From Methanosarcinales archaeon (GTDB lineage Archaea; Halobacteriota; Methanosarcinia; Methanosarcinales; Methanogasteraceae): a stretch of 57,853 nt of DNA. The notes beneath the pieces were generated by a model, which saw only the letters and a list, made by a program, of their open reading frames with translations, ran no database searches and was not told the DNA's origin. The translations under genes and the position numbers were made by a program. The number at the start of each line of letters is the position of its first letter. Within the stretch, counting starts at the first letter, position 1. The stretch spans positions 1 through 57,853 of the forward strand of contig RXIK01000114.1 of the NCBI GenBank assembly GCA_004211975.1, read 5' to 3'. Shown piece by piece: positions 1 through 50,333 of this stretch.

Positions 1-216
1 GGTTGTCTTGTGTAAGCACAACTGATAAAATTGAGCGCTATCGATCTGAAAAGTCATTTATATCGTTAATCTGTGAAATCAGTGTTAATCTGTGGCTAAA
101 AGTTTTATTTGCCACAGATGAACACTGATTCCGCTGATTTCGGAAGTCATATCATGCCACTGTTTGCAGGATTGGCATCATGTTGTTCAGCCGATCAGAA
201 CAAATTAAAAAGTCTC
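1..216 (+). mobile_element. MITE-like repeat, family A, copy 1 (left part cut by window edge)
   Basis: Aligns almost base-for-base with 5757-5957 and 32417-32664. Central long hairpin (gttaatctgtggc 84-96 / gccacagat 111-119, stem extendable to about 22 bp). Right terminus ttaaaaagtctc 205-216 is the inverse complement of the left terminus gagacttttta seen in the full copy. Confidence 0.75.
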
Positions 217-608
217 TGAGATGGACTGCGCCTAAATCGTTATAAACTCGAGAGAAATGGTTTGCAGGCAGGTGCTCCGGGTGGTGGCTTGTGGGGGTGA
301 TGCCTATTAGACACACCGCGGAAATTTGGGTAGTATCTGCTCCACCTGTTGGGACTGGTGGCATACAAGCAACAATAGGTGTATTTGATCTATATGTGGT
401 CTTTCAGGAAACGATGGGTAAATCATATAATTGTATGTATCCGGCAACATGCATGACTATTTGTTATGAATGCTCATGACTAAACGTCAGATGGTTAATC
501 TTATATGCTCCCGGTTACGTATGGTGTGTTGCATCTACTTATGTGCAATTTTCGTTTGGAATGTGTAGCGATAGATACCTGATAACACATATAATGGAGG
601 ATACAATC

Positions 609-1655
609 ATGAAGAACGGACTAATACTACTTGCAATGATCGTGATACTATCAGTGGTGCCGTCTGCATGCGCAGATGCGATCATAATAGATCATACGTG
701 CACGAATCTCTCAGAGGTTCCGGATGAATGGGTTGTAAAAGCAAAGGACACGTTTAACCTCTCGTATGGGCACACGTCCCATGGAAGCCAGATTGTGACC
801 GGGATTAATAACATCAAGAATTCGGCGGGTTCTCTTTACTGGTACGATCGCGATGGAACCCTTGGCGGGCTATCCCTGCATGACAGAACACCCTCTGGCG
901 ATCTTGGCAACCCGGATCGTCACACATGGGAGTCTCGAACACGGACGATGCTGGATGACCCGGACAACGATCGAAACGTTGTGATGTGGTCGTGGTGTGG
1001 TCAGGCTGCTACGTCACAGGAGAATATGCAGGTGTACATTGACCTGATGAGCGGGCTGGAGGCGGATTATCCTGATGTCTTATTCATCTACATGACCGGA
1101 CATCTGAATGGCGGTGGTGAAGATGGTGCCCTTAACCAGCGCAACAACCAGATCCGTGACCACTGCATCGCAAACAACTCAGTTCTCTTTGATTTCGCAG
1201 ACATTGAGAGCTATGACCCTGATGGCAACTACTTTCTTGACAGGGGCGCAACTGACTCCTGCAATTATGATGGTGGGAACTGGGCTGATGAATGGTGTTC
1301 CGTAAATCCCGGTGACCTGTGTGCATCCTGCTCCTGCGCTCATTCCAAGCCGCTGAACTGTAATCTTAAAGGCAGAGCCTTCTGGTGGATGATGGCACGC
1401 CTCGCGGGCTGGGACGGCAGGTCTGACAGCCAGCCAGAGCAACTGATCTGTGGTGACGTCACTGATGATGGTGCGGTTAACACCGTTGATCTCGTGCTGC
1501 TCCTGAAACACTGTGTCAGCCCTGCTGGCAACCCGATTGCTCATGAGTGCACCGGTGACATTGATGGCAACGGACACATTAGCACACTTGATGTGCTGCT
1601 GCTAATAGGGTCTATCGCTGATCCTGATGCGCATCCGCTGAGCTGTGGATGCTAA
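609..1655 (+). CDS. Secreted protein of unrecognised family with C-terminal type-I dockerin-like module
   Basis: ORF 543..1655 trimmed to ATG 609 (GGAGG at 596-600; MKNGLILLAMIVILSVVPSACADA looks like a signal peptide). The last ~65 aa carry two Ca-loop+helix segments (GDVTDDGAVNTVDLVLLL, GDIDGNGHISTLDVLLLI) and end in CGC. Confidence 0.7.
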   Translation: MKNGLILLAMIVILSVVPSACADAIIIDHTCTNLSEVPDEWVVKAKDTFNLSYGHTSHGSQIVTGINNIKNSAGSLYWYDRDGTLGGLSLHDRTPSGDLGNPDRHTWESRTRTMLDDPDNDRNVVMWSWCGQAATSQENMQVYIDLMSGLEADYPDVLFIYMTGHLNGGGEDGALNQRNNQIRDHCIANNSVLFDFADIESYDPDGNYFLDRGATDSCNYDGGNWADEWCSVNPGDLCASCSCAHSKPLNCNLKGRAFWWMMARLAGWDGRSDSQPEQLICGDVTDDGAVNTVDLVLLLKHCVSPAGNPIAHECTGDIDGNGHISTLDVLLLIGSIADPDAHPLSCGC

Positions 1656-1671
1656 AAATCGGGGGATAACA

Positions 1672-3492
1672 ATGAAACAACACCTTATAGTAGCGATGCT
1701 AATCCTCGCCGCGCTCACCTGCACCGCGGTTGCAACTGACTGGCAGGTTAATTCAGGTGACTCGATACAGGCGGCAATCAACAGTGCAACCACCGGCGAC
1801 ATGATCTATGTGCATGCCGGAACATACATCGAGAACGTGCTCGTGAACAAGACGCTAACGCTTCAGGGTGATGGTGCGGGCGTGGTGACGGTGCGGGCGG
1901 CATCGGTGGCAGAACATGTCTTTAACGTGACCGCGGATTATGTGGCTATCACGGGGTTTACTGCGACCGGGGCAACAGGCAACACAAAGGCTGGGTTTTA
2001 TCTTGGTAATGGCGTGGATCACTGCGATGTCTCTGATAACAACGCATCAAACTGTAACCGCAGCATCTATCTGAACCGCTCAAGCGACAACGTGCTCACA
2101 GGAAATATCGCAAACTCGGGTGATTACCGCGGTATCCTCCTGCTTGATTCGAACAACAACACGCTTCTGGGCAACAGCGCATCAGGCAACATTCGAGGCA
2201 TCCACCTGCATCATTCCAGCAACAACACGCTTGCAAACAACGTGATGGCTGGAAACACATACAACTTCGGTGTTCTTGGCACAACTCCCGCCCACTATGT
2301 TCATGACATAGACCCAAGCAACCTTGTGAATGGTAAGCCAATCCGGTATCTGGTGGGGCGGCAGGATCAGCAGGTTCCGGACGATGCCGGGTATGTTGGA
2401 GTCGTGAACTGTGACAACATAACGGTCAGGGACATAAGATTAACAGGGAATCTGCAGGCAGTGCTACTTGCATATTCAATTGATTCGTTGGTGGGAAATG
2501 TCACCGCATCAGATAACCACTGCGGCATCTTCCTGTACAATTCAACTAACAATGTCCTCATAGGCAACAACGTATCCGACAGTGACTATGGCATATACCT
2601 GCAGTATTCGAGCAACAACAGTGTCACCGGAAACACAGCGAACTCAAACACACTGTACAACATCAATCTGGTAGATTCTTCGAGCAACAACACGCTTACG
2701 GATAACAACGCGTCCGGTGGTGACTACTGCGGCATCGCCGTAGCTCTTTTAAGCAACAACAATACGCTTGTGAATAACACCGCAAACTCAAATGGACCTG
2801 GTGGCGTTGGCGGCATCCTCCTGTATGAGTCATGCAGCCACAATAACATTTCAGGCAACACCGCAAACTCAAACCATGGGTACAGCGGGATTCTCCTGTA
2901 TGAGTCATGCAGCCATAACACCCTCTCGGGCAACACCGTAAACTCAAACGCCGGCGCGTATGGTGGCATTGCCATATACTCATCTCCAAACGATAACGTG
3001 ATTACAGGAAACACCGTGCTCGATAACCACCCTTATGGTGTGCTGATGGTGTCTTCGAGCGGCAACCTGATCTACAACAACTACTTCGCAAACACACAAA
3101 ACGCCAGAGACGACGGTTCTAACGTCTGGAACATCACGCCGGTCACCGGACCAAACATTGTGGGCGGTTCTAAGATCGGTGGCAACTACTGGAGTGACTA
3201 TGCGGGAGCCGACGGCAACGGCGATGGGTTTGGTGATACGCCACATCCTATTGGCAGCTTGAATCATGATTACCTGCCGCTGGTCACGTCCGTGTGCGGC
3301 GACATTAATGGTGATGGCAATATCAACACGGTTGACATCTTACGCCTGCTGGAGCATGTTGTCACAGGCACGCAGGTTGACCTTTGCATCGGCGATCTCG
3401 ATGGCAACGGACACATCAACGCCCATGATGTGCAGATGCTGATGAGATATATCAATGATTCAACAGGGTATCAACTGAATTGCGGGTGCTAA
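1672..3492 (+). CDS. Secreted right-handed parallel beta-helix repeat (PbH1/NosD-like) protein with C-terminal dockerin-like module
   Basis: ORF 1645..3492 trimmed to ATG 1672 (signal peptide MKQHLIVAMLILAALTCTAVA). Many ~22-aa repeats of the type NNTLxGNxxSxNxxGIxL. C-terminus has GDINGDGNINTVDILRLL and GDLDGNGHINAHDVQMLM and ends in CGC. Confidence 0.75.
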   Translation: MKQHLIVAMLILAALTCTAVATDWQVNSGDSIQAAINSATTGDMIYVHAGTYIENVLVNKTLTLQGDGAGVVTVRAASVAEHVFNVTADYVAITGFTATGATGNTKAGFYLGNGVDHCDVSDNNASNCNRSIYLNRSSDNVLTGNIANSGDYRGILLLDSNNNTLLGNSASGNIRGIHLHHSSNNTLANNVMAGNTYNFGVLGTTPAHYVHDIDPSNLVNGKPIRYLVGRQDQQVPDDAGYVGVVNCDNITVRDIRLTGNLQAVLLAYSIDSLVGNVTASDNHCGIFLYNSTNNVLIGNNVSDSDYGIYLQYSSNNSVTGNTANSNTLYNINLVDSSSNNTLTDNNASGGDYCGIAVALLSNNNTLVNNTANSNGPGGVGGILLYESCSHNNISGNTANSNHGYSGILLYESCSHNTLSGNTVNSNAGAYGGIAIYSSPNDNVITGNTVLDNHPYGVLMVSSSGNLIYNNYFANTQNARDDGSNVWNITPVTGPNIVGGSKIGGNYWSDYAGADGNGDGFGDTPHPIGSLNHDYLPLVTSVCGDINGDGNINTVDILRLLEHVVTGTQVDLCIGDLDGNGHINAHDVQMLMRYINDSTGYQLNCGC

Positions 3493-3508
3493 AAATCGAG
3501 GAACAACC

Positions 3509-5320
3509 ATGAAACAACACCTCATAGCAACACTACTACTCCTCGCATTGCTCACCTGCGCCGCGGATGGAAGCGAAGTTGCAGCGCCGGTTCTTAAGTG
3601 GCAGCAATGTGGCTGCTACAACTCGTGGTGCGAGACCGGCTGGTATTCTTCGCCAGCGGTGGCTGATCTGGATGGTGACGGTGATATGGAGGTTGTTGCT
3701 TCGGCTTACTCGGTTGTTGCGCTTGACGGTGAGACCGGCGACCTTTTGTGGCGTGTGAAATCCGGACATGACCGGAGCGAGGATCCTGGCAGCGTTGATA
3801 ATGTCGGGCGCACGTGGCCCGGGGTTGTGATTGCTGATGTGGATGATGACGGCGAGATTGAGATTGTGACCGCACACGGTCATGGCTATGTCTCGGTCTA
3901 CAACAATGAAGGCTACTTTGAGCCGGGATGGTGCAAGAACCCGGTCACAAACGAGTTTCGCTCGCTTGCCGTATCAGATCTTGACGGTGACGGCAATATG
4001 GAGATTGCTTGTGGGCTGGCACGCGGCGATAACACGAATATCTGGGTTTTTGAGCATGACGGAAGCATCCGGCAGGGCTGGCCCCGGCTGGCAGATGATG
4101 ATGACGGCTCGGCGTGGGGCACCTACAACGACAACATCGGTACCGGTGACATCGACGGTGACGGGCTGCCCGAACTGATCGTCCCATCCGACACGATCAC
4201 GATCTGCGCTTATGAGGCAGACGGGACGCACATCGGGACCAACAATATGTACCATGACCATTCGGGTCATAACATGGATTACTGGGGCAAGGTTCCCGCA
4301 TACATCAATCTATCGTACGAGACCCGCGGGTGGGGTCCATGCTACACAGAGTTTACTGTGAGAGCAAACTTTGCAAACGGACCTGCAAACGTGGTGGATG
4401 TCAACGGAGACGGCGTAAACGAAATTGTTGTGATTGGCGACGTTCACGACTGCCACACCAGCCCATACACCGACCTTTACAACACGCCCTACATATTTAA
4501 TTCGGATCGCAGCCGGTTCAGCGCAGACGGATTTGACTGGACCACGCCCCCGATTGAGACGGGAGCGCCAATCATTCAGGATTATGGCGTGATTGAGAGC
4601 GTGCAGCCAAATCCGGTAACCGTTGATCTTGATGCCGATGGTAGGATCGAGATTCTGTATCCTTCTTATGATGGGCGGATGCATGCGTTCTGGCTGGATA
4701 AAACCGAGCATGGCAACTGGCCATATTCGGTCTATGACTTGTCAGAGGGCTTTTATCGCCTTGCAACAGAGCCGGTCGTGGCTGATCTTGACAACGACGG
4801 GAACGCAGAGGTAATCTTCGGATCCTGGGTTCAGAAAGGGACCGAACACACAGGCAAGCTCCATATTCTTGACCATGCCGGAAACGTGATTCATGAGATG
4901 GATCTGCCTCCTGCGAAGTCCGGCGACTGGAACGGTGTGCTCGCGGCTCCAACGCTCGCGAATATTGATGATGATTCCGACCTTGAACTCGTGCTGAACA
5001 CGGCTCATTCCGGTGTTGTGGCTTACGACCTACCTGGAACCGCTGGTGCTCGAGTTCTCTGGGGCACCGGGCGTGGAAGCTACTATCGAAACGGAGAGTC
5101 TCCGGTTAGTTCCACGGTTCCGCAGAAGGGCGACCTTAATTTCGATGGCAACGTCACGTCCGCAGACGTCATAATTGTGCTAATGGTCGCTGTTGGGAGT
5201 CACGAACACCTGGATGCTGCCGATCTTAATTGTGATGGACGCGTGACTGCGCTTGACGCACGGCTCTTGCTGCACCATCTCACCGATCCGGAGAAGTATG
5301 CACTTAACCGTGTGTGCTGA
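3509..5320 (+). CDS. Secreted FG-GAP/VCBS-type beta-propeller protein with C-terminal dockerin-like module
   Basis: Signal peptide MKQHLIATLLLLALLTCAADG. At least 8 motifs of the type D-[LVI]-[DN]-x-D-G-x-x-E-[IVL] (DLDGDGDMEVV, DVDDDGEIEIV, DLDGDGNMEIA, DIDGDGLPELIV, DVNGDGVNEIVV, DLDADGRIEILY, DLDNDGNAEVIF, NIDDDSDLELVL). C-terminus has GDLNFDGNVTSADVIIVL and ADLNCDGRVTALDARLLL. Confidence 0.75.
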   Translation: MKQHLIATLLLLALLTCAADGSEVAAPVLKWQQCGCYNSWCETGWYSSPAVADLDGDGDMEVVASAYSVVALDGETGDLLWRVKSGHDRSEDPGSVDNVGRTWPGVVIADVDDDGEIEIVTAHGHGYVSVYNNEGYFEPGWCKNPVTNEFRSLAVSDLDGDGNMEIACGLARGDNTNIWVFEHDGSIRQGWPRLADDDDGSAWGTYNDNIGTGDIDGDGLPELIVPSDTITICAYEADGTHIGTNNMYHDHSGHNMDYWGKVPAYINLSYETRGWGPCYTEFTVRANFANGPANVVDVNGDGVNEIVVIGDVHDCHTSPYTDLYNTPYIFNSDRSRFSADGFDWTTPPIETGAPIIQDYGVIESVQPNPVTVDLDADGRIEILYPSYDGRMHAFWLDKTEHGNWPYSVYDLSEGFYRLATEPVVADLDNDGNAEVIFGSWVQKGTEHTGKLHILDHAGNVIHEMDLPPAKSGDWNGVLAAPTLANIDDDSDLELVLNTAHSGVVAYDLPGTAGARVLWGTGRGSYYRNGESPVSSTVPQKGDLNFDGNVTSADVIIVLMVAVGSHEHLDAADLNCDGRVTALDARLLLHHLTDPEKYALNRVC

Positions 5321-5518: not shown

Positions 5519-5756
5519 GTAACTGCTCAGTTATGGTGATTAGTCGCCCGATTGCGATTCGGTACTTTCTGGTAAGAAAAAATAACCGCGTAGGGCGCAG
5601 AGGAACGAGAGAGTGTTTAACCGTTTATTTCCCCTCCGCGTCCCTCTGCGCACTCTCTAGTTAAATTCCCGGTTTGGTTATAGTATTTACTACATCCCAG
5701 ATGGTTCCTGCATAGCGAAGTCCCTTGATAGTGGTTTTAGGTACCTAAGTAGTTAC
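5519..5756 (+). mobile_element. MITE family B, copy 1 (238 bp), inserted into the left terminus of MITE A copy 2
   Basis: About 90 percent identical by eye to 14631-14867. Imperfect 12-bp terminal inverted repeats (gtaactgctcag ... ctaagtagttac). Flanked by direct 8-bp duplication gagacttt (5511-5518 and 5757-5764). Confidence 0.85.
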
Positions 5757-5957
5757 GAGACTTTTTATTATTTTCAGGTTACCCGGGGTTTGTCTTGTGT
5801 AAGCACAATTGATAAAATTGAGCGCTATCGATCTGAAAAGTTATTTATATCGTTAATCTGTGAAATCAGTGTTCATCTGTGGCTAAAAGTTTTATTTGCC
5901 ACATATTAACACTGATTACACTGATTTCGGAAGTCATATCATGCCACTGTTTGCAGG
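5757..5957 (+). mobile_element. MITE family A, copy 2 (right arm truncated; first 8 bp also present at 5511-5518 as TSD of the MITE B insertion)
   Basis: gagactttttattattttcaggttacccgggg... is colinear with copy 3 (32417-) and copy 1. Similarity ends after ...ccactgtttgcagg at about 5957. Confidence 0.8.
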
Positions 5958-6403
5958 GGTCATGGTGACTCATGGAATAATAGTATACGCATATTAGTTT
6001 GTAATATGCTTGGCAAAATAACTATCAGTAAAAATAACTTTTTCGAGAACCACCGAAATCCGATAGATTCAGACAAATTCGGTGTGTTGGACTATGGCAG
6101 CATCTCCAACCGGAACCTGATTGACCACATCAATAGGGCAGGGATTATTTTTTATGATACAAAAGGGATAAATTGTGAAAAATAAGAGACTGCCCAAAAG
6201 ATCAGAGTTTTTGCGGACCCGGGCTTCAAATTATTGGTTGCCGGGTGGAGCGCCTGAACAGCCCACCCCCTGACCGCGGCAAATTTAATACCTATCAGCA
6301 CATAGTAGATATGTGGTATGCCGGGGAAAAGGCAACGACCGGGTTTGTGATGACGTTGTAATTGTGGTTACCGATTTGCAAGCTAAAAACCAGAAGGTAA
6401 GAG

Positions 6404-7264
6404 GTGGATGAAGTGGATAACTCAAAAAACAGTATTAAAACCGGTTTTGAAGATGCAAGCACACGATTTATGCACATGTTTGGCGAAGAAGAACAGCAGG
6501 TTCAGCCAGTTGGGGTAAAACTGGTTCTGAAGGGGCAGGCAGTTCCTGAGGGCACGAAACCTCCGGTGGAATATCAGGGAGTTCCGTGGTGTGAAGCGGT
6601 GAGGCTCGCAGCGATGGATGGTGAGGTGGTGGTGATCAACAGGGATAATGTGGGATGTCCTGCGTCCGCTATCGCTCTTGGTCTTGTTGATGCGCGTGAG
6701 AGCGAGCCACTCGGTGGCACGCGCAAATACACCGACATGATGGAGACTGCGGCAGCTCCGGCAGACTTTACTGATGGGCTGGTCTATGCGTGCAGAGCAA
6801 GCGGCAACATGCAGTTCGCACTCTTTGGTGAGGGTGACACCGGGCGGTATGAGACCCATGGCGCTGCGCTTAACGCAATCTCAGGGATGGTCTCGATCCA
6901 GCCTGCGATCATGGATGCGGCTGTGGCATATCCTGCAGGAAAACTCCCGCTCGTGCCTGATCTCGTGATTCTCGGACTCCTGCCAAGGCAGGTGCTGCTT
7001 GCGATTCAGGGCTACAACTTCCTGACAGGTAATCGCTTTCGGATGGACACCATCGGGATTCGGGGTGTGTGCGCAGACCTGACAGCGCAGCCATATATGG
7101 AGCAGAGGTTAAACGGCTCGTTCTTCTGTCTCGGTGCAAGAGCAGTTGGTGGATGGGGTGGCAATATGCTGGGTCTTGGCATGCCGTTTTCGGTGTTCCG
7201 GACGATGGTTGTGGGCATGGAGCGATCGGCAGGTGGTTTTCCGTATGCTGCCTACCCTGACTGA
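6404..7264 (+). CDS. DUF169 (COG2043)-like protein, function unknown
   Basis: 286-aa ORF. PVGVKL, GCPASAIALG and FCLGARAVGGWG resemble DUF169 as I recall it. GTG start at 6404 is uncertain (the internal Met at MHMFGEE is possible). Co-oriented, 57 nt upstream of the first STAS sensor gene. Confidence 0.45.
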   Translation: MDEVDNSKNSIKTGFEDASTRFMHMFGEEEQQVQPVGVKLVLKGQAVPEGTKPPVEYQGVPWCEAVRLAAMDGEVVVINRDNVGCPASAIALGLVDARESEPLGGTRKYTDMMETAAAPADFTDGLVYACRASGNMQFALFGEGDTGRYETHGAALNAISGMVSIQPAIMDAAVAYPAGKLPLVPDLVILGLLPRQVLLAIQGYNFLTGNRFRMDTIGIRGVCADLTAQPYMEQRLNGSFFCLGARAVGGWGGNMLGLGMPFSVFRTMVVGMERSAGGFPYAAYPD

Positions 7265-7321
7265 CAGGAATAATAACAATAATAATAATTAAGGGATGTG
7301 AGGGGGATTGTGGGTAAATAG

Positions 7322-9172
7322 ATGAATAAAAAGAAAAATCCACCGTTAAAGGAACTCGTGGATCTACATGAGCTGCAATTAATCCAGGATAGCTTTGCAG
7401 AGACGGTTGGCACGTCTTCGGTCATTTTCTCGTCGGACTGCGAGCCTTTAACTGAGTTTAGCAACCCGACCGGTTTCTGTTCCCTGATCCAGTCGACTGA
7501 TGCCGGAAAACAGCGCTGTTTCCAGTCGTTTCAGGAGATGGTAGAGGGTGCGCTCGAGTCAGGAGAGCCTAAAATTATGTATTGCTTTGCGCATGGCGGT
7601 CATTTCGTTGCGCCGATTATAATTGATGGCAAGCACAAGGGAACGATGTTTGCGGGACAATTCATACCATCAGAGTTCTCAGAGGGACAACTGGATGACA
7701 TCAGACAGATAGCCGGGGACATTGGTCTGGATCCTGAACTGCTCCACGCCAAAGCAGAGCGGATGCGCGTGGTCACTGAGGATTCAGTCCGGAATTATTC
7801 AAGTCTCCTGTTCAGGATAGTCGGGGTTATTGCGAAGATGGGCTCGCAGGCAGGGGAACTGCGTCAGGCAGGGGATGCGCTGCAGAAGGCACATAACGGG
7901 CTGGAGAAACGCGTGCAAGAACGAACAGCGGAACTTGCGGAAGCAAACGCCGGACTGCAGCATGAAATTGCCGAGCGTAAGAGCGCAGAAGAATCGCTTC
8001 GTGAAGGAGAAGAGCGGTTCAGAATGATGTTTGAGAACATGAGTAACGCCGTAGCCGTCTACGAGTCAGCTAACGAAGGAAACGATTTCATCTTCAAGGA
8101 TCTCAACCGAGCAGGGGAGAAGATCGATAACCTCAAGAGAGAAGACCTGATCGGTAAAAGCGTGCTCGACGTATTCCCCGGAGTTGTGGAGTTCGGACTC
8201 TTTGATGTTTTCCGGAGGGTGTGGCAGACCGGTGAGCCGGAACACTGCCCCATCTCTCTTTACACGGATGAGAAGATTGTTGGCTGGAGAGAGAACTATG
8301 CCTATAAGCTGCCGTCCGGCGAAATCGTTGCTATTTATGATGATGTGACCGAGCAAAAGCAGATGGAAGAATCGCTTGCAGAGAGCGAAGAGAAACACCG
8401 TACACTGGTTGAGACCCTGACTGATCTTGTCTTCATAATAGACCTGGAAGGCAGGTTCACATATCTCAGCCCGATCTTCGAAGATATCACCGGTTACCCG
8501 GTCAGGGATTTCATAGGACGTTCGTTCACCGAAGTTATTGTTCCGGAATACATTGAACAAACAGTCAACCGTTTCAAACAGGGGGTTTCAGGTGAAGAGA
8601 TCCCGCTTTATGAGATAGAACTTGTACATAAGGATAAAAAAAGTGTCCCGGTAGAATTAAATGTGACTTCATTACTTAATGTGGATGGGGAGGTCGTTGG
8701 CAGGACTGGCACCGCCCGTGACATCACCGAGCGCAAAGAACTCGAGCAGCAGTTGCAGCAGGCGTTTGATAAACTGAAAGCGTCATACGAGGAGTTATCC
8801 ATCCCTGTGATTCAGGTGTGGGACGGTGTGCTCGTGCTCCCGATCATAGGCGTTCTTGACAGCGAGCGGATTAATCGGTTGATGGAGACGATGCTTGCAA
8901 AGATTGTTGAGACACAATCAGGAGTTGTGATAATCGATGTAACCGGCGTGCGTTCTGTTGATACGAATGTTGCAAACCATCTGATCAATGTCGCGAAGGC
9001 GGCAAAGCTGCTTGGCACAAGGTGCGTCGTCACAGGAATAAAGCCGGATGTGGCACACACGCTTATCGGGCTTGGCGTGGACATGTCAGGGGTTACAACG
9101 ATGCGGTCGATGCAGGAGGGGCTAAAGTATGCGCTGCAGATCGCAGGAGCCGGGGTTGGGGTTGACGCGTGA
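7322..9172 (+). CDS. Cytoplasmic sensor: PocR-like domain + coiled coil + 2 PAS + C-terminal RsbR-type STAS domain
   Basis: N-terminus (LIQDSFAETVGTSSVIF...CFAHGGHFVAPIIIDGKHKGTMFAGQF) resembles the PocR sensory domain. Two PAS-like blocks end in DVTEQK and DITERK. C-terminus ELSIPVIQVWDGVLVLPIIGVLDSERINRLMETML...VVIIDVTGVRSVDT...VTGIKPDVAHTLIGLGV is colinear with the B. subtilis RsbRA STAS domain as I remember it. Confidence 0.75.
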   Translation: MNKKKNPPLKELVDLHELQLIQDSFAETVGTSSVIFSSDCEPLTEFSNPTGFCSLIQSTDAGKQRCFQSFQEMVEGALESGEPKIMYCFAHGGHFVAPIIIDGKHKGTMFAGQFIPSEFSEGQLDDIRQIAGDIGLDPELLHAKAERMRVVTEDSVRNYSSLLFRIVGVIAKMGSQAGELRQAGDALQKAHNGLEKRVQERTAELAEANAGLQHEIAERKSAEESLREGEERFRMMFENMSNAVAVYESANEGNDFIFKDLNRAGEKIDNLKREDLIGKSVLDVFPGVVEFGLFDVFRRVWQTGEPEHCPISLYTDEKIVGWRENYAYKLPSGEIVAIYDDVTEQKQMEESLAESEEKHRTLVETLTDLVFIIDLEGRFTYLSPIFEDITGYPVRDFIGRSFTEVIVPEYIEQTVNRFKQGVSGEEIPLYEIELVHKDKKSVPVELNVTSLLNVDGEVVGRTGTARDITERKELEQQLQQAFDKLKASYEELSIPVIQVWDGVLVLPIIGVLDSERINRLMETMLAKIVETQSGVVIIDVTGVRSVDTNVANHLINVAKAAKLLGTRCVVTGIKPDVAHTLIGLGVDMSGVTTMRSMQEGLKYALQIAGAGVGVDA

Positions 9173-9276
9173 ACGAGACTGCCAGCGAACCAAAATCTCA
9201 AAATAACTCGAGAAAAGAATTTAATAGACATTGCTACGTATGATAAATTGGGTCTGCTTACAATGGGGTAATTGGC

Positions 9277-10479
9277 ATGGGAACAACATTAGCAACAGGG
9301 TTGGGCAAGGGCGCATATAGTGTCATAGCGGCTGAAAAAGCTGTTCAGCATGCGAAAGATAAGTTGGGCGGAGGTCATGTTGACCTATCGATTGTGTATT
9401 CATCCAGTGACTATGATTATCAAGCGGTGGTTGATACGGTACGAGCAGCCACGGGCAATGCACCTCTGATCGGCTGCTCGTCATCAGGCGAGTTTACCGA
9501 GGAGCACGTGGAACAAGGAAGTGTTGCTGTTGGCTTGATCGTTTCGGATGATATCAAGTTCGCAACAGCGATCGCGGATGGCGTGAAAGAAGATCCGGAG
9601 CGTGCAGTGAGAACGGTCGCAAACAAACTTCCGCTGAAAGTGAGGGATTATCCATACCTATCTGCTGTTTTCCTCATTGATGGGCTGGCAGGGGTCGGCG
9701 AGGAGATGGCGGTGCTGGCAGCCATAGTCTTCAACCAGACATTCGGTACGAACGTGAAACTTGCAGGTGGTGCTGCGGGTGATGACCTGAAATTCAAAGA
9801 GACGTTCGTCTTCTCTGATGACCGCATAGCAACCGATGCGGTAAGTGTATGTCTCTTCGCTTCAAAAAAGCCGCTTTACACCGGTGTGCAGCATGGTCAC
9901 ACACCCCTAAGCGAGCTATTACGGGTAACCAGAGCCGAGGGATGTGTGTTGCATGAAATTGATGGACGACCCGCATGGGACGTGTGGAAAGAGAGGACTG
10001 CAAAAGCAGCCAGCAAGATTGGCATTGATGTCGGAGCGATCGAGGGGGTGGACATAGGAGCGCACCTGATCAGGTTTGAACTCGGTTTACCGGATGTGGG
10101 TGAACAGTACAAGATACGAGTGCCGCTTGGCAAGAATGAAGACGGTTCCTTAAATTTCGGCTGCGCCATCCCCGAAGGCGTCACTTTTCGCATAATGGAG
10201 AGCGAGAAAGAGAATCAGATCGTATCCGCGAGAGTTGCAGCGGAAATGGCGAAGGAGAATTCCGGTGATAGCGAAATTGCAGGTGTGATTGTCTTTGACT
10301 GCGTATGCAGACACTTGATTCTGAGCGATGAGTTCTACAGGGGTGTAGACCAGTTCAAGGATGTACTTGGAGATGTTCCTGTACTTGGCTGGGAGACGTA
10401 TGGCGAGATCTGCATGGAACCCGGGCAGTTCAGCGGTTTTCATAACACCACGTCGGTAGTCTTGATCATACCACGGTAA
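9277..10479 (+). CDS. Stand-alone FIST (FIST_N + FIST_C) domain protein
   Basis: 400 aa. The motifs LIGCSSSGEF, KLAGGAAGDD and LGWETYGEI, and the length, fit the FIST sensory fold. No output domain. Confidence 0.6.
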   Translation: MGTTLATGLGKGAYSVIAAEKAVQHAKDKLGGGHVDLSIVYSSSDYDYQAVVDTVRAATGNAPLIGCSSSGEFTEEHVEQGSVAVGLIVSDDIKFATAIADGVKEDPERAVRTVANKLPLKVRDYPYLSAVFLIDGLAGVGEEMAVLAAIVFNQTFGTNVKLAGGAAGDDLKFKETFVFSDDRIATDAVSVCLFASKKPLYTGVQHGHTPLSELLRVTRAEGCVLHEIDGRPAWDVWKERTAKAASKIGIDVGAIEGVDIGAHLIRFELGLPDVGEQYKIRVPLGKNEDGSLNFGCAIPEGVTFRIMESEKENQIVSARVAAEMAKENSGDSEIAGVIVFDCVCRHLILSDEFYRGVDQFKDVLGDVPVLGWETYGEICMEPGQFSGFHNTTSVVLIIPR

Positions 10480-10509
10480 GAATTGGGGATATTATCATGA
10501 CACCGACTT

Positions 10510-11673
10510 ATGCAGTCTGCGCAAAGGGGCGGGATCGTAAAAATCACCGGGGATGACTACAAACAGGAACCAGAGAGACGGTGCAAAATGTTTGAAATAA
10601 AGAAAAGTGAGTTGATAGGGGCTTATGCATCGAATATGGGTGCAACATCTGCCGAGGAGTTAATCGAGAGGAAGATAAAAGACGCACACCTCGAATCAAA
10701 AGAAACTTACACGAGAGAGGAAATTGCACGGGTATGCAGTGAATTAATGCGGGTTGGGGGCTTAATCAAAATACTTGCTCAAAATTTTCTCGTTCAACTG
10801 GAGTATGTGGCACGAGAAGAACTGGAAAAACTGGTGCAGGAAAGAACCAGGGAACTCACCGAGACAAATGAAGCGCTGAATAGAGCAAAACAGTATTTCC
10901 AGACACTCTTTTCCACAATGATTGATCCAGTAGTCATAATCGATAGCAAAGGCGTATTTGTGGAGGCTACTGATAATGTGGAAGATGTCACAGGATTTAC
11001 AAAGGAGGAGCTACTGGGCGGAAGTTTCCTTGAAACCGGAATCATGACCGAAGAAAGTAACGCCGTGATATCAGAGAATCTGGCGAAACGGATGGCGGGA
11101 GTGAATGTTGCCCCGTGCGAGGTCGAGGTGCTCACAAAAGACGGGAGAAAACTACCTTTTGAGGTGAATGCGGCACAGATCATCCATATAAACCAACCCG
11201 CAGACATGCTGATATTCAGGGACATTACCGAGCGCAAAAGACTTGAGCGAGAGTTACAGCAGGCGTTTGACAGACTAAAAGCAGCTTATGAGGAGTTATC
11301 CATCCCTGTGATTCAGGTGTGGGCTGGTGTGCTCGTGCTCCCGATCATAGGCGTTCTTGACACCGAGCGGATCAACCGGTTGATGGAGACGATGCTTACA
11401 AAGATTGTCGAGACACAATCAAGAGTTGTGATAATCGACGTAACAGGCGTGCGTTCCATTGATACAAATGTTGCAAACCATCTGATCAATGTCACAAAGG
11501 CGGCAAAGCTGCTTGGCACAAGGTGCATCGTCACAGGAATAAAGCCCGGAACTGCGCACACGCTTGTCGGGCTTGGCGTGGATATGTCAGGGATCACAAC
11601 GAAACGGTCGATGCAGGACGGGCTAAAGTCTGCGCTGCAGATCGCAGGAGCAGGGGGGTTGATGAGTGAATGA
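10510..11673 (+). CDS. Sensor: unknown N-domain + coiled coil + PAS + RsbR-type STAS
   Basis: One PAS-like block ends in DITERK. The STAS domain is nearly identical to that of 7322..9172. Alternative start at ATG 10588 (MFEIKK). Confidence 0.75.
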   Translation: MQSAQRGGIVKITGDDYKQEPERRCKMFEIKKSELIGAYASNMGATSAEELIERKIKDAHLESKETYTREEIARVCSELMRVGGLIKILAQNFLVQLEYVAREELEKLVQERTRELTETNEALNRAKQYFQTLFSTMIDPVVIIDSKGVFVEATDNVEDVTGFTKEELLGGSFLETGIMTEESNAVISENLAKRMAGVNVAPCEVEVLTKDGRKLPFEVNAAQIIHINQPADMLIFRDITERKRLERELQQAFDRLKAAYEELSIPVIQVWAGVLVLPIIGVLDTERINRLMETMLTKIVETQSRVVIIDVTGVRSIDTNVANHLINVTKAAKLLGTRCIVTGIKPGTAHTLVGLGVDMSGITTKRSMQDGLKSALQIAGAGGLMSE

Positions 11674-12829
11674 AACAAAGGAAAAGTGGCGGACTCTGAT
11701 TGAAAAGATACCGATCGGGGTCCTGTTGGTCGATTGCAACCGAAAGATCAGGGACCTCAACAAATCCGCCGTGGACATGATTGGCAGAGAAAAGGCGGAG
11801 ATTCTCGGCAAGGTATGCCACGAGTTCGTCTGCCCAATGGCACAGAATGACTGCCCGGTCTATGATCACGGAAAGACTCTTGACCGTGCAGAGGCGGTGC
11901 TTCTCTCAAAAGACCGCGGGGAGGTTGCAATCGAGAAGACAGTGACAACGATCGTGGTGGATGGTGAAGAGATGCTTCTTGAGATGTTCTCTGACATCAC
12001 AAGGCGAAAAGCCGCGGAAGAATCGCTTCGGGAGAGTGAAGAACGGTTCCGGGCAATCTTTGAGACGGCTCAGGACTCAATCTTCATCAAGGATCGCTCG
12101 TTTAGATATACTCAGGCGAATCCGGCGATGGAAAAACTTTTCGGAGCCCCGGTCTCAGAACTTCTCGGGCGAACGGATGATGAGCTTTTCGGAGAGACTG
12201 CGGGAGCGCACATCAGGGACGTGGACTCGCGAGTTCTTGGTGGGGAGATAATCGATGAGACGGACACCAAGCCGATGGACGGGGTTTTAAGAACGTTTCA
12301 CACAATCAAGGTGCCGATACGGGATAGTTCCGGGGAGATTGTGGGGTTGTGCGGCATTGCCCGCGACATCACCCGGCAGAAGGAACTTGAGCGGAAGCTG
12401 CAAATTTCGTTTGACAAACTGATGAACTCTTATGGGGCGCTTGCAATCCCTGTGATTCAGGCTCATGATGGCGTGCTCGTAATCCCGATCGTGGGCGTTC
12501 TCGATGACATGCGCATCAACAAGTTGACAGAGACGATGCTACACAAGATTGCTGACATGAGGTCATTGGTCGCGATACTCGATCTCACAGCCGTCCGGTC
12601 AATCGACAGTGATGTTGCACACCGCCTGCTTGAGACGGTTGCTGCGTCACGGCTTCTTGGGACAGAGTGCATCCTCACAGGAATCGGTCCGGAGGTTGCG
12701 GCGGCAACGGTGCGGCTGGGCATGGATGAGATGAATATCGTGACACGCGGAAGCTTGCAGGAGGGACTTGCGTATGCGATACGGAGGGTTGGTGGAGGTA
12801 ACAGAGCGCCCGGAGGTTTGCGCAGATGA
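11666..12829 (+). CDS. Sensor: 2 PAS (first with CHEFVCPMAQNDCP Cys motif) + RsbR-type STAS
   Basis: GTG start overlaps the stop of the upstream gene by 8 nt. PAS-like blocks end in DITRRK and DITRQK. STAS: LAIPVIQAHDGVLVIPIVGVLDDMRINKL...ILDLTAVRSIDS...LTGIGPEVAAATVRLG. Confidence 0.7.
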   Translation: MNETKEKWRTLIEKIPIGVLLVDCNRKIRDLNKSAVDMIGREKAEILGKVCHEFVCPMAQNDCPVYDHGKTLDRAEAVLLSKDRGEVAIEKTVTTIVVDGEEMLLEMFSDITRRKAAEESLRESEERFRAIFETAQDSIFIKDRSFRYTQANPAMEKLFGAPVSELLGRTDDELFGETAGAHIRDVDSRVLGGEIIDETDTKPMDGVLRTFHTIKVPIRDSSGEIVGLCGIARDITRQKELERKLQISFDKLMNSYGALAIPVIQAHDGVLVIPIVGVLDDMRINKLTETMLHKIADMRSLVAILDLTAVRSIDSDVAHRLLETVAASRLLGTECILTGIGPEVAAATVRLGMDEMNIVTRGSLQEGLAYAIRRVGGGNRAPGGLRR

Positions 12830-14412
12830 AGATCCAGACCCGGGTTCTTGCCGTGCTGATTATCACCATCCTGATCACAGGCGCGGTGGGCATTATAGCG
12901 AGCAATGTTGTCTCAAGAGCGATCGCGGAAGATGTGATCTGCAATCATCTGGTGACAACTGTGCAATCACGAGCAAATCATATCGAGACGTTTCTGGATA
13001 TGAACAAGCAGAAGGTTGAAAGAACAGCAAATGGTGCAATTATCAGAGATCTCCTGACAACAGACGTGGATGATGATTGCTATGTTGCACAGTATGAAAG
13101 AGTGACTGCGCGTCTACATGCCCTGGCAGCAACCGACGACACGATCTGTGAAATCTTGCTTCTTAACCGGAACGGGACTGTTGTCGCCTCAACTGACGAG
13201 TCGATTGTTGGGAGCGATAAAAGTTCGGAGGATATTTTCCTGGAAGGGCGCAAACAAACTTATGTGGGTGATGTTCATGCGTGTAAAAACACCGGAAAAT
13301 CGGTTATGCTATTTTCCGCCCCAGTAATCAAGAATGCGGAGATGGTGGGAGTCATAGTCACGAGCATACGAATGGACGACCTGGACGCAATCACAACAGA
13401 CAGGACAGGTCTTGGTGAGACCGGGGAGATATACATCCTGAACATGGACGGGTACATGATAACACCCTCGCGGTTTACGAGTGACACGTTCCTGAAACAG
13501 AAGGTTGCAACAGGGCATCTCGGGGATACGCCTGAAAACCTCAAAAATATAGGGGAAGGCGAATACGGACATGAGCTCATCACCTGCAAGAATTATCTGG
13601 GAACAAATGTTATCAGGACGCATACGCACATAAATGAGCTGGGCTGGACCGTGGTCGCTGAGATGAGCGAAGAAGAAGCGTTTACTCAGGTTACCGGGCT
13701 TGCGCGCACGATGCTCATAATTCTCACCGTTCTCATGGTTGGCGGGGCAGTATGTTCCATCATCATCTCCGGAACACTGACAGAACCAATTCTCAGGCTA
13801 TCCCGAGGTGCTGAGAAGATCGAAAAAGGAGATCTCGATTACAAAGTCGGAACAGACTCTGATAATGAGATCGGGGACCTCTCACGATCCATCGACCGGA
13901 TGACCGGTGAACTCAAGAGATCAAAGATGGAACTGGAGGCGCACAACGCAAGCCTTGAGGCGCAGGTCACGGAGCGAACCAGAAAACTCACTGAATCAGA
14001 GGAATACCTAAAAGAACTCGTTGACAAGCTGCGAATCTCGCAGGAAAGCTTGTCTGCACCGGTTGTTCAGCTCGAGGACGGAATCCTTGCGCTGCCACTA
14101 ATCGGGATGATCGATGAACACAGGATCGCAACGATCATGGAGACACTGCTCTCCAGGATCACAGAAACACAGTCCGATGTCGTGATACTGGACGTAACAG
14201 GCGTTCACGAGATCGATACGTATGTGACCAGTCAACTGATCCGGATTGTCAGAGCCACGCAACTACTTGGCGCAACATGCATCGTCACAGGAGTGCGTCC
14301 CGAGTCTGCGCACACGCTCGTTGAGCTTGGCGTGGACACGTCAGAACTCCTGACACGACGGACACTGCAGGACGGCATCAGGTATGCACAGAAGATTGTG
14401 GGGGGCGAATAA
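12826..14412 (+). CDS. Membrane sensor: TM + extracytoplasmic Cache-like domain + TM + HAMP + coiled coil + RsbR-type STAS
   Basis: ATGA start/stop overlap at 12826-12829. Hydrophobic helices VLAVLIITILITGAVGIIASNVV and MLIILTVLMVGGAVCSIIISGTL flank a ~270-aa domain. HAMP-like PILRLSRGAEKIEKGDLDYKV...IGDLSRSIDRMTGELK. STAS: LSAPVVQLEDGILALPLIGMIDEHR...ILDVTGVHEIDT...VTGVRPESAHTLVELG. Confidence 0.75.
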   Translation: MKIQTRVLAVLIITILITGAVGIIASNVVSRAIAEDVICNHLVTTVQSRANHIETFLDMNKQKVERTANGAIIRDLLTTDVDDDCYVAQYERVTARLHALAATDDTICEILLLNRNGTVVASTDESIVGSDKSSEDIFLEGRKQTYVGDVHACKNTGKSVMLFSAPVIKNAEMVGVIVTSIRMDDLDAITTDRTGLGETGEIYILNMDGYMITPSRFTSDTFLKQKVATGHLGDTPENLKNIGEGEYGHELITCKNYLGTNVIRTHTHINELGWTVVAEMSEEEAFTQVTGLARTMLIILTVLMVGGAVCSIIISGTLTEPILRLSRGAEKIEKGDLDYKVGTDSDNEIGDLSRSIDRMTGELKRSKMELEAHNASLEAQVTERTRKLTESEEYLKELVDKLRISQESLSAPVVQLEDGILALPLIGMIDEHRIATIMETLLSRITETQSDVVILDVTGVHEIDTYVTSQLIRIVRATQLLGATCIVTGVRPESAHTLVELGVDTSELLTRRTLQDGIRYAQKIVGGE

Positions 14413-14630: not shown

Positions 14631-14867
14631 GTAACTGCGCAGGTATGGTGATTAGTCGCCCGATTGCGATTCGGTACTTTCTGGTAAGAAAAAATAACCG
14701 CTGAGGGCGCAGAGGATCGCAGAGTAGTTAACCGTTTATTTCCACTCCGCGTCCCTCTGCACACTCTACGGTTAAATTTCCGGTTTGGTTATAGTATTCA
14801 CTACATCCCGGATGGTTCCTGCATAGCGAAGTCCCTTGATAGTGGTTTTAGGTACCTGAGTAGTTAC
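14631..14867 (+). mobile_element. MITE family B, copy 2 (237 bp)
   Basis: Same element as 5519-5756. TIRs gtaactgcgcag ... ctgagtagttac. Perfect 8-bp direct duplication gaatcagg at 14623-14630 and 14868-14875. Confidence 0.85.
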
Positions 14868-14937
14868 GAATCAGGAAAGATTCCTCGCAATTCATTGCGG
14901 GGATGATGTCAAGAACACAGAGAACCAACTGTTAAAC

Positions 14938-17914: not shown

Positions 17915-18050
17915 AAGACTTTTAATTTTTTTCTGGTCGGTTGAACAACATGATACCAATCCTGCAAACAGTGGCATGATATGACTTCCGAAATCAGTGT
18001 TAATCTGTGGCTAAAAGTTTCATTTATCACCAATTAACACATATTACTCC
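17915..18050 (-). mobile_element. MITE family A, copy 4 (partial, degenerate, inverted orientation)
   Basis: aagacttttaattttt ttctggtcggttgaacaacatgataccaatcctgcaaacagtggcatgatatgacttccgaaatcag matches the reverse complement of the right arm of copies 1 and 3. The hairpin is degenerate, and its loop is in the opposite orientation relative to the arm. Confidence 0.65.
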
Positions 18051-18243
18051 GATTCTGGATTTTTACCGTTTATTTGGTCCTTGATTTGCCACACCACAAC
18101 ACCTCGCGGCAGGGATAATTCTCCATGCTAACCAGAAGAATCAAAGAGTATTTCCCGAAGTATCCGTAAGTTTTATCGCATCATATTAAAGATAGAGAAC
18201 CAAAAAATGCCAGAACTGCCGGGCAAAGAGGAGGATATGATAT

Positions 18244-21384: not shown

Positions 21385-21541
21385 GAGATTCTGAGTTCTT
21401 TACTTATCCCGGTCGGTTGAACAACCTTATACCAGTCCTGCGAACCTTGGCACGATAGGACTTCCGAAATCAGTGGAATCGTGTTAATCTGTGGCAAATA
21501 AAAGCTTTTAGCCACCGATTAACACTGATTTCACAGATTTT
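21385..21541 (-). mobile_element. MITE family A, copy 5 (partial, inverted orientation)
   Basis: ggtcggttgaacaac...gacttccgaaatcagtggaatcgtgttaatctgtggcaaataaaagcttttagccaccgattaacactgatttcacagatt equals the reverse complement of the right arm plus hairpin of copy 1. The far arm is missing. Confidence 0.7.
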
Positions 21542-21613
21542 ACATGTCGCCCACGTAAATAAACTCATAAGATCACAGGTAATCCTGGATGGTGCGACAG
21601 CCAATTCCCAATT

Positions 21614-32416: not shown

Positions 32417-32664
32417 GAGACTTTTTATTATTTTCTGGTTACCCCGGGGTTGTCTTGTGTAACCACAACTGATAAAATTGAGCGCTATCGATCTGAAAAG
32501 TCATTTATATCGTTAATCTGTGAAATCAAGTGTTAATCTGTGGCTAAAAGTTTTATTTGCCACAGATTAACACTGATTCCACTGATTTCGGAAGTCGTAT
32601 CCTGTCATTTTTTGCAGGATTAGCATCATGTTGTTCAACCGACCAGAACAAAATAAAAAGCCTC
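32417..32664 (+). mobile_element. MITE family A, copy 3 (full length, 248 bp)
   Basis: Imperfect ~23-bp terminal inverted repeats: left gagactttttattattttctggt, and right end ...accagaacaaaataaaaagcctc (reverse complement gaggctttttattttgttctggt). Central perfect 16-bp stem agtgttaatctgtggc 32529-32544 / gccacagattaacact 32559-32574. Confidence 0.85.
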
Positions 32665-47984: not shown

Positions 47985-49082
47985 TCAGTATATTGGCTCA
48001 AGATCATCTATATGGGCAAACGCACCATCAAGCTGTTTCTTTGACTGTTCTCGCTTGTCCATCTCAAAACGAATCGCATCCGCGGCGTCAGCATATATTC
48101 TCTCAAGTTCAGGCACCGAATTAAGAGTAAACAGCGATAACACCTTAGGTCTACCTTTTTTAATAAGAACTCCTTTGAAAACCTGCCCAACATCCGTAGA
48201 AAGCTCTTCAACAGTCTTGGTGATCAGATCAAGATCAAGATATTTCTTGTCGCCCTTGATGATCAACATCGCACGGGCACCTTCGTTGTACACGTTTGTG
48301 GGGAACAGAAGCCCACTTGGTTTGAAACTCCCAAGAATCGCGGACTTGATCGTGCCATCCTTGCCTGCCTCGTAGTAGCCCATGGTCCCGATACCGATTC
48401 CGCCATTCATCACGGTCTTCAGGTCGCCAAGATCGGTGACCATCAGCATCTCGCTATTGAGTGCCTCGATCAGGAATAGCACCCGCATTGCGACTGAGGT
48501 GTTGATCTTGTCATAAGCGGACTTGATGTCGCCTGCGTATTTCTTCAGATACTGGTTGTCCACAAGCAGTATCCCGTTAGGACTCTCAGCGACTAACTCC
48601 CGTATGCAGAAAGCCGTGTTCTGCAGGAAGATGGAGCCTTCTTCCCTGAACGGAAGTACCGCGATACAGATGATCTGGGCATTGTATGCTTTCTTCAGTT
48701 CTTTCACAAGAAGCGGCGCAAATGATGACCCGCTTCCACCCGCGGTGGATGTGACGATAAATATAAGCTCAAACGACCCTCTTTTGTCGATTTCACTCAT
48801 AATCTGCTCTTTATTATCGTCAAAAACCTTTTTTCCAAGTGTGCGGTTCGCGCCGACGCCGTGCAGGTGTGGGACGTGAAAACGGTCTTTCGCACGTGTA
48901 TCTGTCAGACCCTTCAGGTCATTGATCGCGGTGTTGATTGCGATTGTCTTGACCGAGGCTGGAAACTTCTGACGCGAGTAATATTTTGCAAACGTGCCGC
49001 CGCTTCCGAATGCTTCGTGATTAACCGCATCAAGCACCCGGTTTCCACATTGTCCGAGTCCGAGAATGAGTATGTTCAGCAT
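47985..49082 (-). CDS. CetZ-like tubulin/FtsZ-superfamily GTPase, paralogue A
   Basis: T1 GLGQCGN; INTAINDLKGL; HGVGANRTLGKK; T4-like TAGGSGSS; LPFREEGS; QNTAFCIREL; LLVDNQYL; T7-like VTDLGDLKTVMNGG; ARAMLIIKGDK. 365 aa, acidic C-terminal peptide ...HIDDLEPIY. Confidence 0.8.
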   Translation of the reverse strand: MLNILILGLGQCGNRVLDAVNHEAFGSGGTFAKYYSRQKFPASVKTIAINTAINDLKGLTDTRAKDRFHVPHLHGVGANRTLGKKVFDDNKEQIMSEIDKRGSFELIFIVTSTAGGSGSSFAPLLVKELKKAYNAQIICIAVLPFREEGSIFLQNTAFCIRELVAESPNGILLVDNQYLKKYAGDIKSAYDKINTSVAMRVLFLIEALNSEMLMVTDLGDLKTVMNGGIGIGTMGYYEAGKDGTIKSAILGSFKPSGLLFPTNVYNEGARAMLIIKGDKKYLDLDLITKTVEELSTDVGQVFKGVLIKKGRPKVLSLFTLNSVPELERIYADAADAIRFEMDKREQSKKQLDGAFAHIDDLEPIY

Positions 49083-49098
49083 ATTATCTGTCTCTTAC

Positions 49099-50292: not shown

Positions 50293-50310
50293 TGGTATCA
50301 GATTGCCGGT

Positions 50311-50333
50311 TTATATTTTATAAACCTTGCGAA
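50311..50333 (-). promoter_or_regulatory. Candidate BRE/TATA promoter box of module A (duplicated with module B)
   Basis: ttatattttataaaccttgcgaa (coding-strand sense ttcgcaaggtttataaaatataa) lies 19-41 nt upstream of ATG 50292. 20 of 23 positions are identical to 52858-52880. Confidence 0.5.

Follow-up and report, generated by a model that had tools for sequence, protein, structure and literature searches.

The subject of this study is a group of six co-oriented genes in a 57.8-kb stretch of DNA from a Methanosarcinales archaeon (the whole stretch is called the window in the following), four of which, G1 to G4, encode a sensor part followed by a linker and a STAS domain resembling that of the bacterial stressosome protein RsbR. 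Alignment with proteins of sister lineages shows that the predicted RsbR-type linker-STAS occupies the position of a kinase transmitter, after the last PAS or HAMP domain, on three kinds of sensor. We favour, with slightly better than even confidence, the interpretation that the six genes constitute a signalling operon specific to an ANME-2-like (anaerobic methanotrophic archaea) lineage of Methanosarcinales, in which kinase transmitters were replaced by STAS modules that co-assemble as a multi-input hub; the model is agnostic as to the partner of this hub, which would be encoded elsewhere.

Operon structure and domain architecture

The six genes are arranged at 6404-14412 in the order DUF169-G1-FIST-G2-G3-G4:

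6404..7264, +, DUF169 (COG2043), first gene of the putative operon; Pfam PF02596, 3.7e-34
7322..9172, +, G1, 616 aa; PocR - coiled coil - PAS - PAS - linker - RsbR-type STAS (Pfam)
9277..10479, +, stand-alone FIST_N+FIST_C protein, NosP-like sensor protein; Pfam 3e-41 and 3e-28
10510..11673, +, G2, 387 aa; N-domain of about 75 aa without Pfam assignment - PAS - linker - RsbR-type STAS
11666..12829, +, G3, 387 aa, GTG start; PAS - PAS - linker - RsbR-type STAS
12826..14412, +, G4, 528 aa; transmembrane segment (TM) - dCache_1 - TM - HAMP - coiled coil - RsbR-type STAS

A preliminary description of this DNA had presented the region as an array of four STAS genes with four different sensors. Indeed, open reading frames and Pfam agree that the genes starting at 7322, 10510, 11666 and 12826 each end in linker and STAS, and their sensor parts do differ (PocR with two PAS domains; a short N-domain with one PAS; two PAS domains; TM-dCache_1-TM-HAMP). 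However, 6404-7264 is a separate DUF169 gene and the FIST gene lies between G1 and G2. The partial translational coupling that had been pointed out was also seen, G2 and G3 overlapping by 8 nt (G2 stop TGA at 11671-11673, G3 GTG start at 11666) and G3 and G4 by an ATGA at 12826-12829, with GGAGG-like motifs upstream of both overlapping starts. The prediction that all six genes, from DUF169 to G4, form one operon is supported. A scan of the locus for bacterial promoters and terminators was uninformative, the host being an archaeon.

One C-terminal STAS domain was assigned by Pfam to each of G1-G4 (E-values 7e-13 to 5e-15), and a search of the window with a STAS hidden Markov model found exactly these four STAS domains, none of them in a single-domain protein. 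Neither HisKA nor HATPase_c was detected in G1-G4 by Pfam or NCBIfam, and no receiver (REC) protein is encoded within the six-gene operon.

The DUF169 protein contains five cysteines that are invariant in the alignment of its relatives, a hint of a metal or cluster site. No sequence match to it was found in the PDB, and its AlphaFold2 model (predicted local distance difference test 86, predicted template modelling score 0.87) was without a structural neighbour there (best E-value about 1, TM-score 0.15). The FIST protein matches the NCBIfam model NosP at 8e-34 with 117 bits, which is below the equivalog cut-off of 450 bits, and no relative of it was found among the PDB sequences. The first PAS domain of G3 carries a Cys/His motif, CHEFVCPMAQNDCPVYDH (residues 51-68, window 11816-11869), and this Cys-rich domain, like that of a histidine kinase described below (locus 2), is possibly metal-binding, Fe-S-binding or redox-sensing. 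The true start of G2 may be M27 at 10588, as a related kinase of a sister lineage (L029) begins at the equivalent of M27.

Type of the STAS domain and its phospho-acceptor positions

As had been proposed, the STAS modules of G1-G4 are, judged by their similarity scores, clearly RsbR-type and neither SpoIIAA- nor SulP-type. In detail, a phmmer search of the PDB with the G1 linker and STAS module (8729-9172) gave E-values of 5.5e-29 for RsbR from Vibrio vulnificus (7O0I) and 2.7e-28 for RsbR from Listeria (6QCM), with a range of 1e-27 to 5e-29 over the RsbR chains, as against 2.5e-17 for RsbS, 5e-15 for YtvA, 0.03 for TM1442 and about 0.8 for SpoIIAA. BLASTP scores of all four modules were about twice as high against RsbR (71-134 bits) as against RsbS (43-62 bits). 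The best NCBIfam model for all four was YtvA_fam, with scores below its cut-off.

The two phospho-acceptor positions were located by alignment with the RsbR proteins of Listeria and Vibrio, T171 and T205 of B. subtilis corresponding to T175 and T209 of Listeria. Both had been said to be retained in the array; this stands for site 1 in all four proteins (T175 column; Ser in G3, Thr in the other three), but for site 2 (T209 column) in three of the four, as G3 has Ala at this position and Thr one residue later. These columns are kept in the orthologues, in the proteins of locus 2 and in paralogues that are only about 50% identical. The idea that G3, with its Ser at site 1, might be a disguised RsbS was rejected, since its STAS domain reaches 111 bits with RsbR but 43 with RsbS and, in addition, clusters with the other archaeal modules in the tree described below.

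Sensor parts shared with histidine kinases of sister lineages

Sister lineages were taken to be those with a DUF169 protein 68-77% identical to the window copy. The following gene orders were found in them (locus, coordinates, genes):

L026, 9346-14363: DUF169, PocR-GAF-HisKA-HATPase_c-REC, REC, REC-MetOD1
L027, 10001-14889, and L028: DUF169, PocR-PAS-PAS-kinase, HDOD/HD, REC
L023-L025 (L023, 2316-10849): DUF169 beside PocR-PAS×3, then dCache-HAMP-HisKA-HATPase-REC×3, then REC
L029, 10001-13419: DUF169, FIST, PAS-HWE/HisKA_2 kinase

Residues 9-469 of G1 are collinear with the PocR-PAS-PAS kinase of L027 at 39% identity, and the similarity ends exactly at the DIT(E)RK motif closing the second PAS domain, beyond which the H-box follows in the kinase, and linker and STAS follow in G1. 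G1 is also collinear with the PocR-GAF-HisKA-HATPase-REC protein adjoining DUF169 in L026 and is 40% identical to the PocR-PAS protein of L023 over 532 aligned positions; its identity to the sensor halves of the sister lineages spans 39-61%. For G4, residues 1-393 match the dCache-HAMP-HisKA-HATPase-REC hybrid kinase of L023 in its sensor half, with 42% identity. The N-domain of G2 (residues 29-104) had been called unknown and does lack a Pfam match, but it shares homology (49% identity) with the N-terminus of the histidine kinase that follows FIST in L029, while the window FIST protein is 52% identical to the FIST protein encoded upstream of the same kinase. No STAS domain was found in the sister loci L023-L029.

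The direction of the exchange, from histidine kinase to STAS, is suggested by the distribution of the two outputs, because STAS was found in one clade only (DUF169 at least 84% identical) as against four lineages of the histidine-kinase type. In addition, DUF169 genes recur next to PocR- or FIST-linked kinases across ANME and Methanosarcinales lineages, which suggests a sensory or cofactor role for the DUF169 protein.

Distribution of the operon and evolution of the module

The host had been taken for an archaeon, and the window genes for a thermosome, LonB, RpoD and the ribosomal proteins L19e/L32e/S4e bear this out. A survey of the kind that the preliminary description had suggested placed the array in Methanosarcinales/ANME. 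One genome per species was scanned with STAS patterns specific to close relatives, and 15 loci were returned, 14 of which come from metagenome-assembled genomes (MAGs) of uncultured Methanosarcinales or 'Methanobacteriota' (UBA261, MAG232, MAG266, MAG122, MAG252, CSMAG_1127, SFP3_US_04_8 and an SRR21487738 bin). The remaining contig, binned as Desulfuromonadales and carrying G3-G4 at 68-78% identity, is most likely mis-binned sequence of an ANME consortium.

Synteny of the operon was found in at least eight Methanosarcinales (ANME-2-like) MAGs. Among the carriers, UBA261, MAG232 and MAG266 have the accessions DAWR01, JAYEGZ01 and JAYEFS01, and a further one is CBDUQO01. By tblastn, the full order DUF169-G1-FIST-G2-G3-G4-DUF447-ARMT1 was seen in L007 and partial orders in L001, L003-L006, L008-L010, L015-L017 and L022; DUF169 lies immediately upstream of G1 in L001, L003, L005, L007, L017 and L022. 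The genes best kept between MAGs are FIST (88-92% identity) and DUF169 (84-89%), and the least stable member is G3, which has an internal deletion in L007 and, in L009 and L010, is missing or fused. The DUF169 relatives with 71-77% identity carry the names Ca. Methanogaster (ANME-2c), Methanosarcinales archaeon and Ca. Methanophagaceae.

In a neighbour-joining tree that included a small set of bacterial RsbR proteins for comparison, the archaeal STAS modules fell into a single clade, with sub-clades for G1 and G2 together, for G3, for G4 with the second STAS protein of locus 2, and for the first STAS protein of locus 2. Within their sub-clade G1 and G2 are intermixed, the identity of the two modules within a genome being 84-86% as compared to 82-88% between orthologues of different genomes. 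In the window the G2 module is 86-87% identical to that of G1, and their DNA is 90% identical over 300 nt (repeat family D2). This pattern indicates concerted evolution of the putative G1 and G2 modules, which must therefore stay interchangeable, as expected with a common interface or partner. The comparison shows, at the level of predicted proteins, that a single linker-STAS module has spread and is being homogenised among paralogues. Chimeras in which the G2 sensor is joined to a G3-type STAS domain occur in L009 (1848-3363) and L010 (1-1110), the former also with a stand-alone, N-terminally truncated G4 STAS; they point to recombination among the STAS repeats, although an assembly artefact is possible.

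The DUF169-G4 operon is bracketed in the window by a direct repeat of about 240 nt (5519-5760 and 14631-14870; 92.5% identical, same orientation, 9112 nt apart), which occurs in these two copies only, was found in none of the fetched loci and has no match in Rfam. The operon could be excised or duplicated by way of this repeat, or the repeat could be an intergenic element particular to the lineage. The interpretation that it marks a mobile cassette was not supported, since other MAGs have the operon without the repeats and in other flanking contexts.

Partner genes

Profiles for stressosome partners were built from RsbS, RsbT and RsbX proteins, including those of three bacterial loci (L019-L021) and, for RsbT, 120 sequences, and used on the window and on about 142 kb of syntenic or paralogous archaeal loci. 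The RsbT profile and the RsbT of L019 gave no match in this DNA at E<=10, and neither did the RsbX/SpoIIE profile give any match; the RsbS/STAS profiles retrieved multidomain proteins only and no single-domain RsbS. Pfam analysis of nearly all plausible window genes of at least 100 aa found no GHKL Ser/Thr kinase, PP2C/SpoIIE phosphatase, histidine kinase or receiver. The earlier remark that the window lacks RsbS, a GHKL kinase and a PP2C phosphatase thus holds and extends to the other archaeal loci. A search for the RsbT family gave 5567 matches, and the 120 listed were bacterial or unnamed, none being named as archaeal. The absence of RsbS and RsbT holds for the gene neighbourhood only.

The closest non-archaeal relatives of the module share 45-56% identity with it, and the three with enough sequence context all lie in canonical modules:

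L019 (bacterial): RsbR-RsbS-RsbT-(HATPase_c_2+SpoIIE)-histidine kinase
L020 (bacterial): two RsbR paralogues-RsbS-RsbT-SpoIIE-RsbU_N kinase
L021 (bacterial): RsbR-RsbS-RsbT-SpoIIE

In addition, a WOR-3 bacterium (L018, 1-5135) has four consecutive genes ending in STAS with neither RsbS nor RsbT after them, three of them encoding TPR-STAS proteins and the first being cut by the contig end. By its predicted domain structure this locus is a bacterial analogue of an array consisting of RsbR-type genes only.

Three of the MAGs with the operon were found to have a second STAS locus (locus 2):

L011, 6934-10441; L013, 8584-12059; L014, 6626-10133: histidine kinase, PAS-STAS, dCache-HAMP-STAS

In locus 2 the gene for a Cys-rich PAS-HisKA-HATPase_c kinase, at 6626-7759 in L014, overlaps the PAS-STAS gene by 8 nt, and the dCache-HAMP-STAS gene, whose product is 52-55% identical to G4, comes next. 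This kinase was the only enzyme found linked to the STAS family in the archaeal loci examined, and is a candidate for the output kinase of this family.

Proposed mechanism and alternatives

In the model that we favour, the STAS module would act as the transmitter, with signals passing down the linker helix to it. Ligand or redox signals would be sensed for G1 by PocR, perhaps with DUF169, for G2 by FIST, acting via the N-domain, for G3 by the Cys-rich PAS domain and for G4 by the extracytoplasmic dCache domain. The near-identical STAS modules would dimerise and probably co-assemble into a multi-input hub that binds or releases one common partner, the conserved Thr/Ser sites being the switch. 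This partner, which is not adjacent to the operon, might be an RsbT-type kinase encoded elsewhere, alone or together with RsbS, or else the PAS histidine kinase that is translationally coupled to the STAS genes of locus 2. Translational coupling, homogenisation of the STAS modules and the retention of RsbR features argue for a common interface or partner, and we infer that the Thr/Ser residues are regulatory and that the proteins may co-assemble into a stressosome-like particle. There are however several points that weigh against such a hub. Phosphorylation of the Thr/Ser sites and co-assembly are predictions, and the conservation of these columns may be structural and not regulatory. A closed 60-mer STAS shell would not easily accommodate a membrane-anchored member such as G4 or N-terminal sensors of very large size. 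Finally, the putative link to the locus-2 kinase is suggested by the adjacency of genes in locus 2, and the probable direction from histidine kinase to STAS by distribution.

It is also possible, although we consider it distinctly less probable, that the four proteins and the two STAS proteins of locus 2 are RsbR paralogues of an ordinary stressosome whose core RsbR-RsbS-RsbT-RsbX genes are unlinked and whose output runs via RsbT to an RsbU_N-type kinase or phosphatase. The strong RsbR-type similarity and the phospho-acceptor Thr/Ser residues that are kept would both be accounted for, and the nearest bacterial relatives belong to canonical modules, which in some cases contain two RsbR paralogues. 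B. subtilis likewise has RsbRB, RsbRC, RsbRD and YtvA unlinked. Cryo-electron microscopy of the Vibrio stressosome has revealed a variable RsbR:RsbS ratio with some faces made of RsbR only, an RsbS-free particle not having been demonstrated there; as stoichiometry in these particles is flexible and RsbR-only faces are tolerated, RsbR-rich assemblies are not implausible. In addition, rsbRSTX modules have been stated to occur in some archaea (PMC9237108, PMC8942246). On the other hand, neither type of archaeal locus has an adjacent RsbS, RsbT or RsbX gene in about ten MAGs, the scan with the STAS patterns of close relatives showed no third type of locus in the MAGs and, as a weak argument, no RsbT was named archaeal among the 120 listed of the 5567 matches. 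As a third possibility, each protein might be an independent dimeric sensor whose STAS domain binds a target of its own or a small molecule, e.g. a nucleotide as proposed for YtvA, with neither co-assembly nor phosphorylation. A membrane receptor such as G4 and a sensor part as large as that of G1 (about 470 aa), neither of which is easily placed in a closed shell, would suit this explanation, as would the operon composition, which differs between MAGs with G3 lost, truncated or fused, and the WOR-3 locus with its four STAS genes (three of them TPR-STAS) without RsbS or RsbT. Nevertheless, we regard it as unlikely, given that G2, G3 and G4 are translationally coupled, that the STAS modules of G1 and G2 are homogenised and that RsbR-specific features including both phospho-sites are retained across the paralogues.

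A bolder version of the hub model, to which we give little credence at present, is that the STAS domains of six sensors (the four of the operon and two of locus 2) form a hub free of RsbS and RsbT, which docks on the GHKL domain of the locus-2 kinase. If this is true, PocR/DUF169, FIST, Cys-PAS and dCache inputs would feed one phosphorelay, and the system would be a hybrid of stressosome scaffolding and two-component signalling made by the replacement of kinase modules with STAS.

Other features of the window

Besides the genes already mentioned, the window encodes FtsZ/CetZ, enolase, ArgG, dockerin-type surface proteins, an integrase and an ISL3 transposase. Three consecutive secreted proteins of the dockerin type (543-5320), one with NosD/beta-helix and one with FG-GAP repeats, share near-identical signal-peptide DNA and are typical of ANME-like surface proteins. 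At 47985-52793 there is a tandemly duplicated pair of genes for a tubulin/CetZ-like GTPase and a DUF11/CARDB surface-type protein (74-80% DNA identity), adjoining FtsZ (53407-54519). An open reading frame of 646 aa without Pfam match (35124-37064, - strand) contains internal repeats of about 390 nt that are 74-94% identical. The ISL3-family transposase (56725-57817, - strand) lies about 400 nt from a match to a Group II intron domain (Rfam RF00029, 63 bits) on the same strand at the window edge. A palindrome-containing repeat of some 170 nt, resembling a miniature inverted-repeat transposable element, occupies at least five intergenic regions of the window (3-170, 5790-5960, 17916-18064, 21393-21549 and 32450-32663), with copies in either orientation, and is also present in contigs of related MAGs (L012-L015).

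Significance

To our knowledge, stressosome biology has been worked out in bacteria only, where the output always passes through RsbT, its target being a diguanylate cyclase, an RsbU_N-type kinase or a cascade that ends in a sigma factor. Regarding archaea, two papers mention in one line each that the rsbRSTX module is found 'even in some archaeal species' (PMC9237108; PMC8942246). The earlier impression that no experimental work exists on an archaeal system was right in so far as no such study was found, but the modules themselves had been mentioned. Our literature search found no account of RsbR-type arrays in Methanosarcinales or ANME, of a swap from kinase to STAS or of a linkage with DUF169 and FIST, and the supplements of the ANME comparative-genomics paper contained no STAS/Rsb annotations. 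Stressosome genes in some archaea were thus known already, while for the Methanosarcinales/ANME arrays, the exchange of transmitters and the DUF169/FIST linkage we found no previous description.

The RsbR linker-STAS appears here as a portable transmitter, which in one uncultured lineage of methane-cycling archaea has taken the place of the histidine-kinase module in three or more sensors unrelated to each other. If RsbS and RsbT are truly absent, this would be a new signalling mode for STAS scaffolds and would also help in understanding how environmental cues are integrated by ANME-type archaea. Should RsbS and RsbT be encoded elsewhere, the loci would still provide a natural experiment on the interchangeability of histidine-kinase and STAS transmitters, and the pairings of DUF169 with PocR and with FIST would point to a sensory role of two uncharacterised families.

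Comparison with known systems

The closest known counterpart is the bacterial stressosome as described from B. subtilis, L. monocytogenes (6QCM/7B0U) and V. vulnificus (7O0I). The archaeal linker-STAS modules are 37-41% identical to those of Listeria and Vibrio RsbR and 40-49% identical to RsbR of a canonical deltaproteobacterial module, and the two systems have in common variable N-terminal sensors, several paralogues per genome, Thr or Ser at the T175 site and, in three of the four archaeal proteins, Thr at the T209 site. They differ in that the archaeal loci of both types are without linked RsbS, RsbT or RsbX/PP2C in any MAG, in that the host is an archaeon without sigma factors, in that one member is a transmembrane dCache-HAMP receptor and in that the sensors are linked to PocR, PAS and FIST and are not globin-like. 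The STAS core of the bacterial complex is pseudo-icosahedral, with a mass of about 1.5-1.8 MDa; an assembly of this kind would be a prediction for the archaeal modules.

In B. subtilis, RsbRB, RsbRC, RsbRD and YtvA are encoded apart from rsbS-rsbT and still feed one complex. The archaeal proteins resemble these paralogues as RsbR-type STAS proteins with no adjacent rsbS-rsbT and with YtvA_fam, although below cut-off, as the best model. The Bacillus genome however contains a core rsbR-S-T-X operon, and the archaeal STAS proteins are without a LOV domain.

With the DUF169-adjacent kinases of the sister lineages the operon shares orthologous sensor halves and neighbourhood (G1 39-61%, G4 42%, G2 N-domain 49%, FIST 52% and DUF169 68-77% identity), but the transmitter there is HisKA/HATPase_c with REC partners, as opposed to an RsbR-type STAS and no REC in the operon. 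The stand-alone FIST gene directly upstream of the gene for its presumed target recalls the NosP-NahK pairs, from which the arrangement differs in that G2, the downstream protein, ends in STAS and not in a kinase, and in that the NosP score of 117 bits is far below the cut-off of 450 bits. Finally, the STAS domains of SpoIIAA/RsbV and SulP/SLC26 belong to the same superfamily (Pfam PF01740), but their similarity is marginal (E-values of about 0.8 for SpoIIAA and 0.03 for TM1442), and the archaeal proteins come with neither a partner anti-sigma kinase nor a transporter domain.

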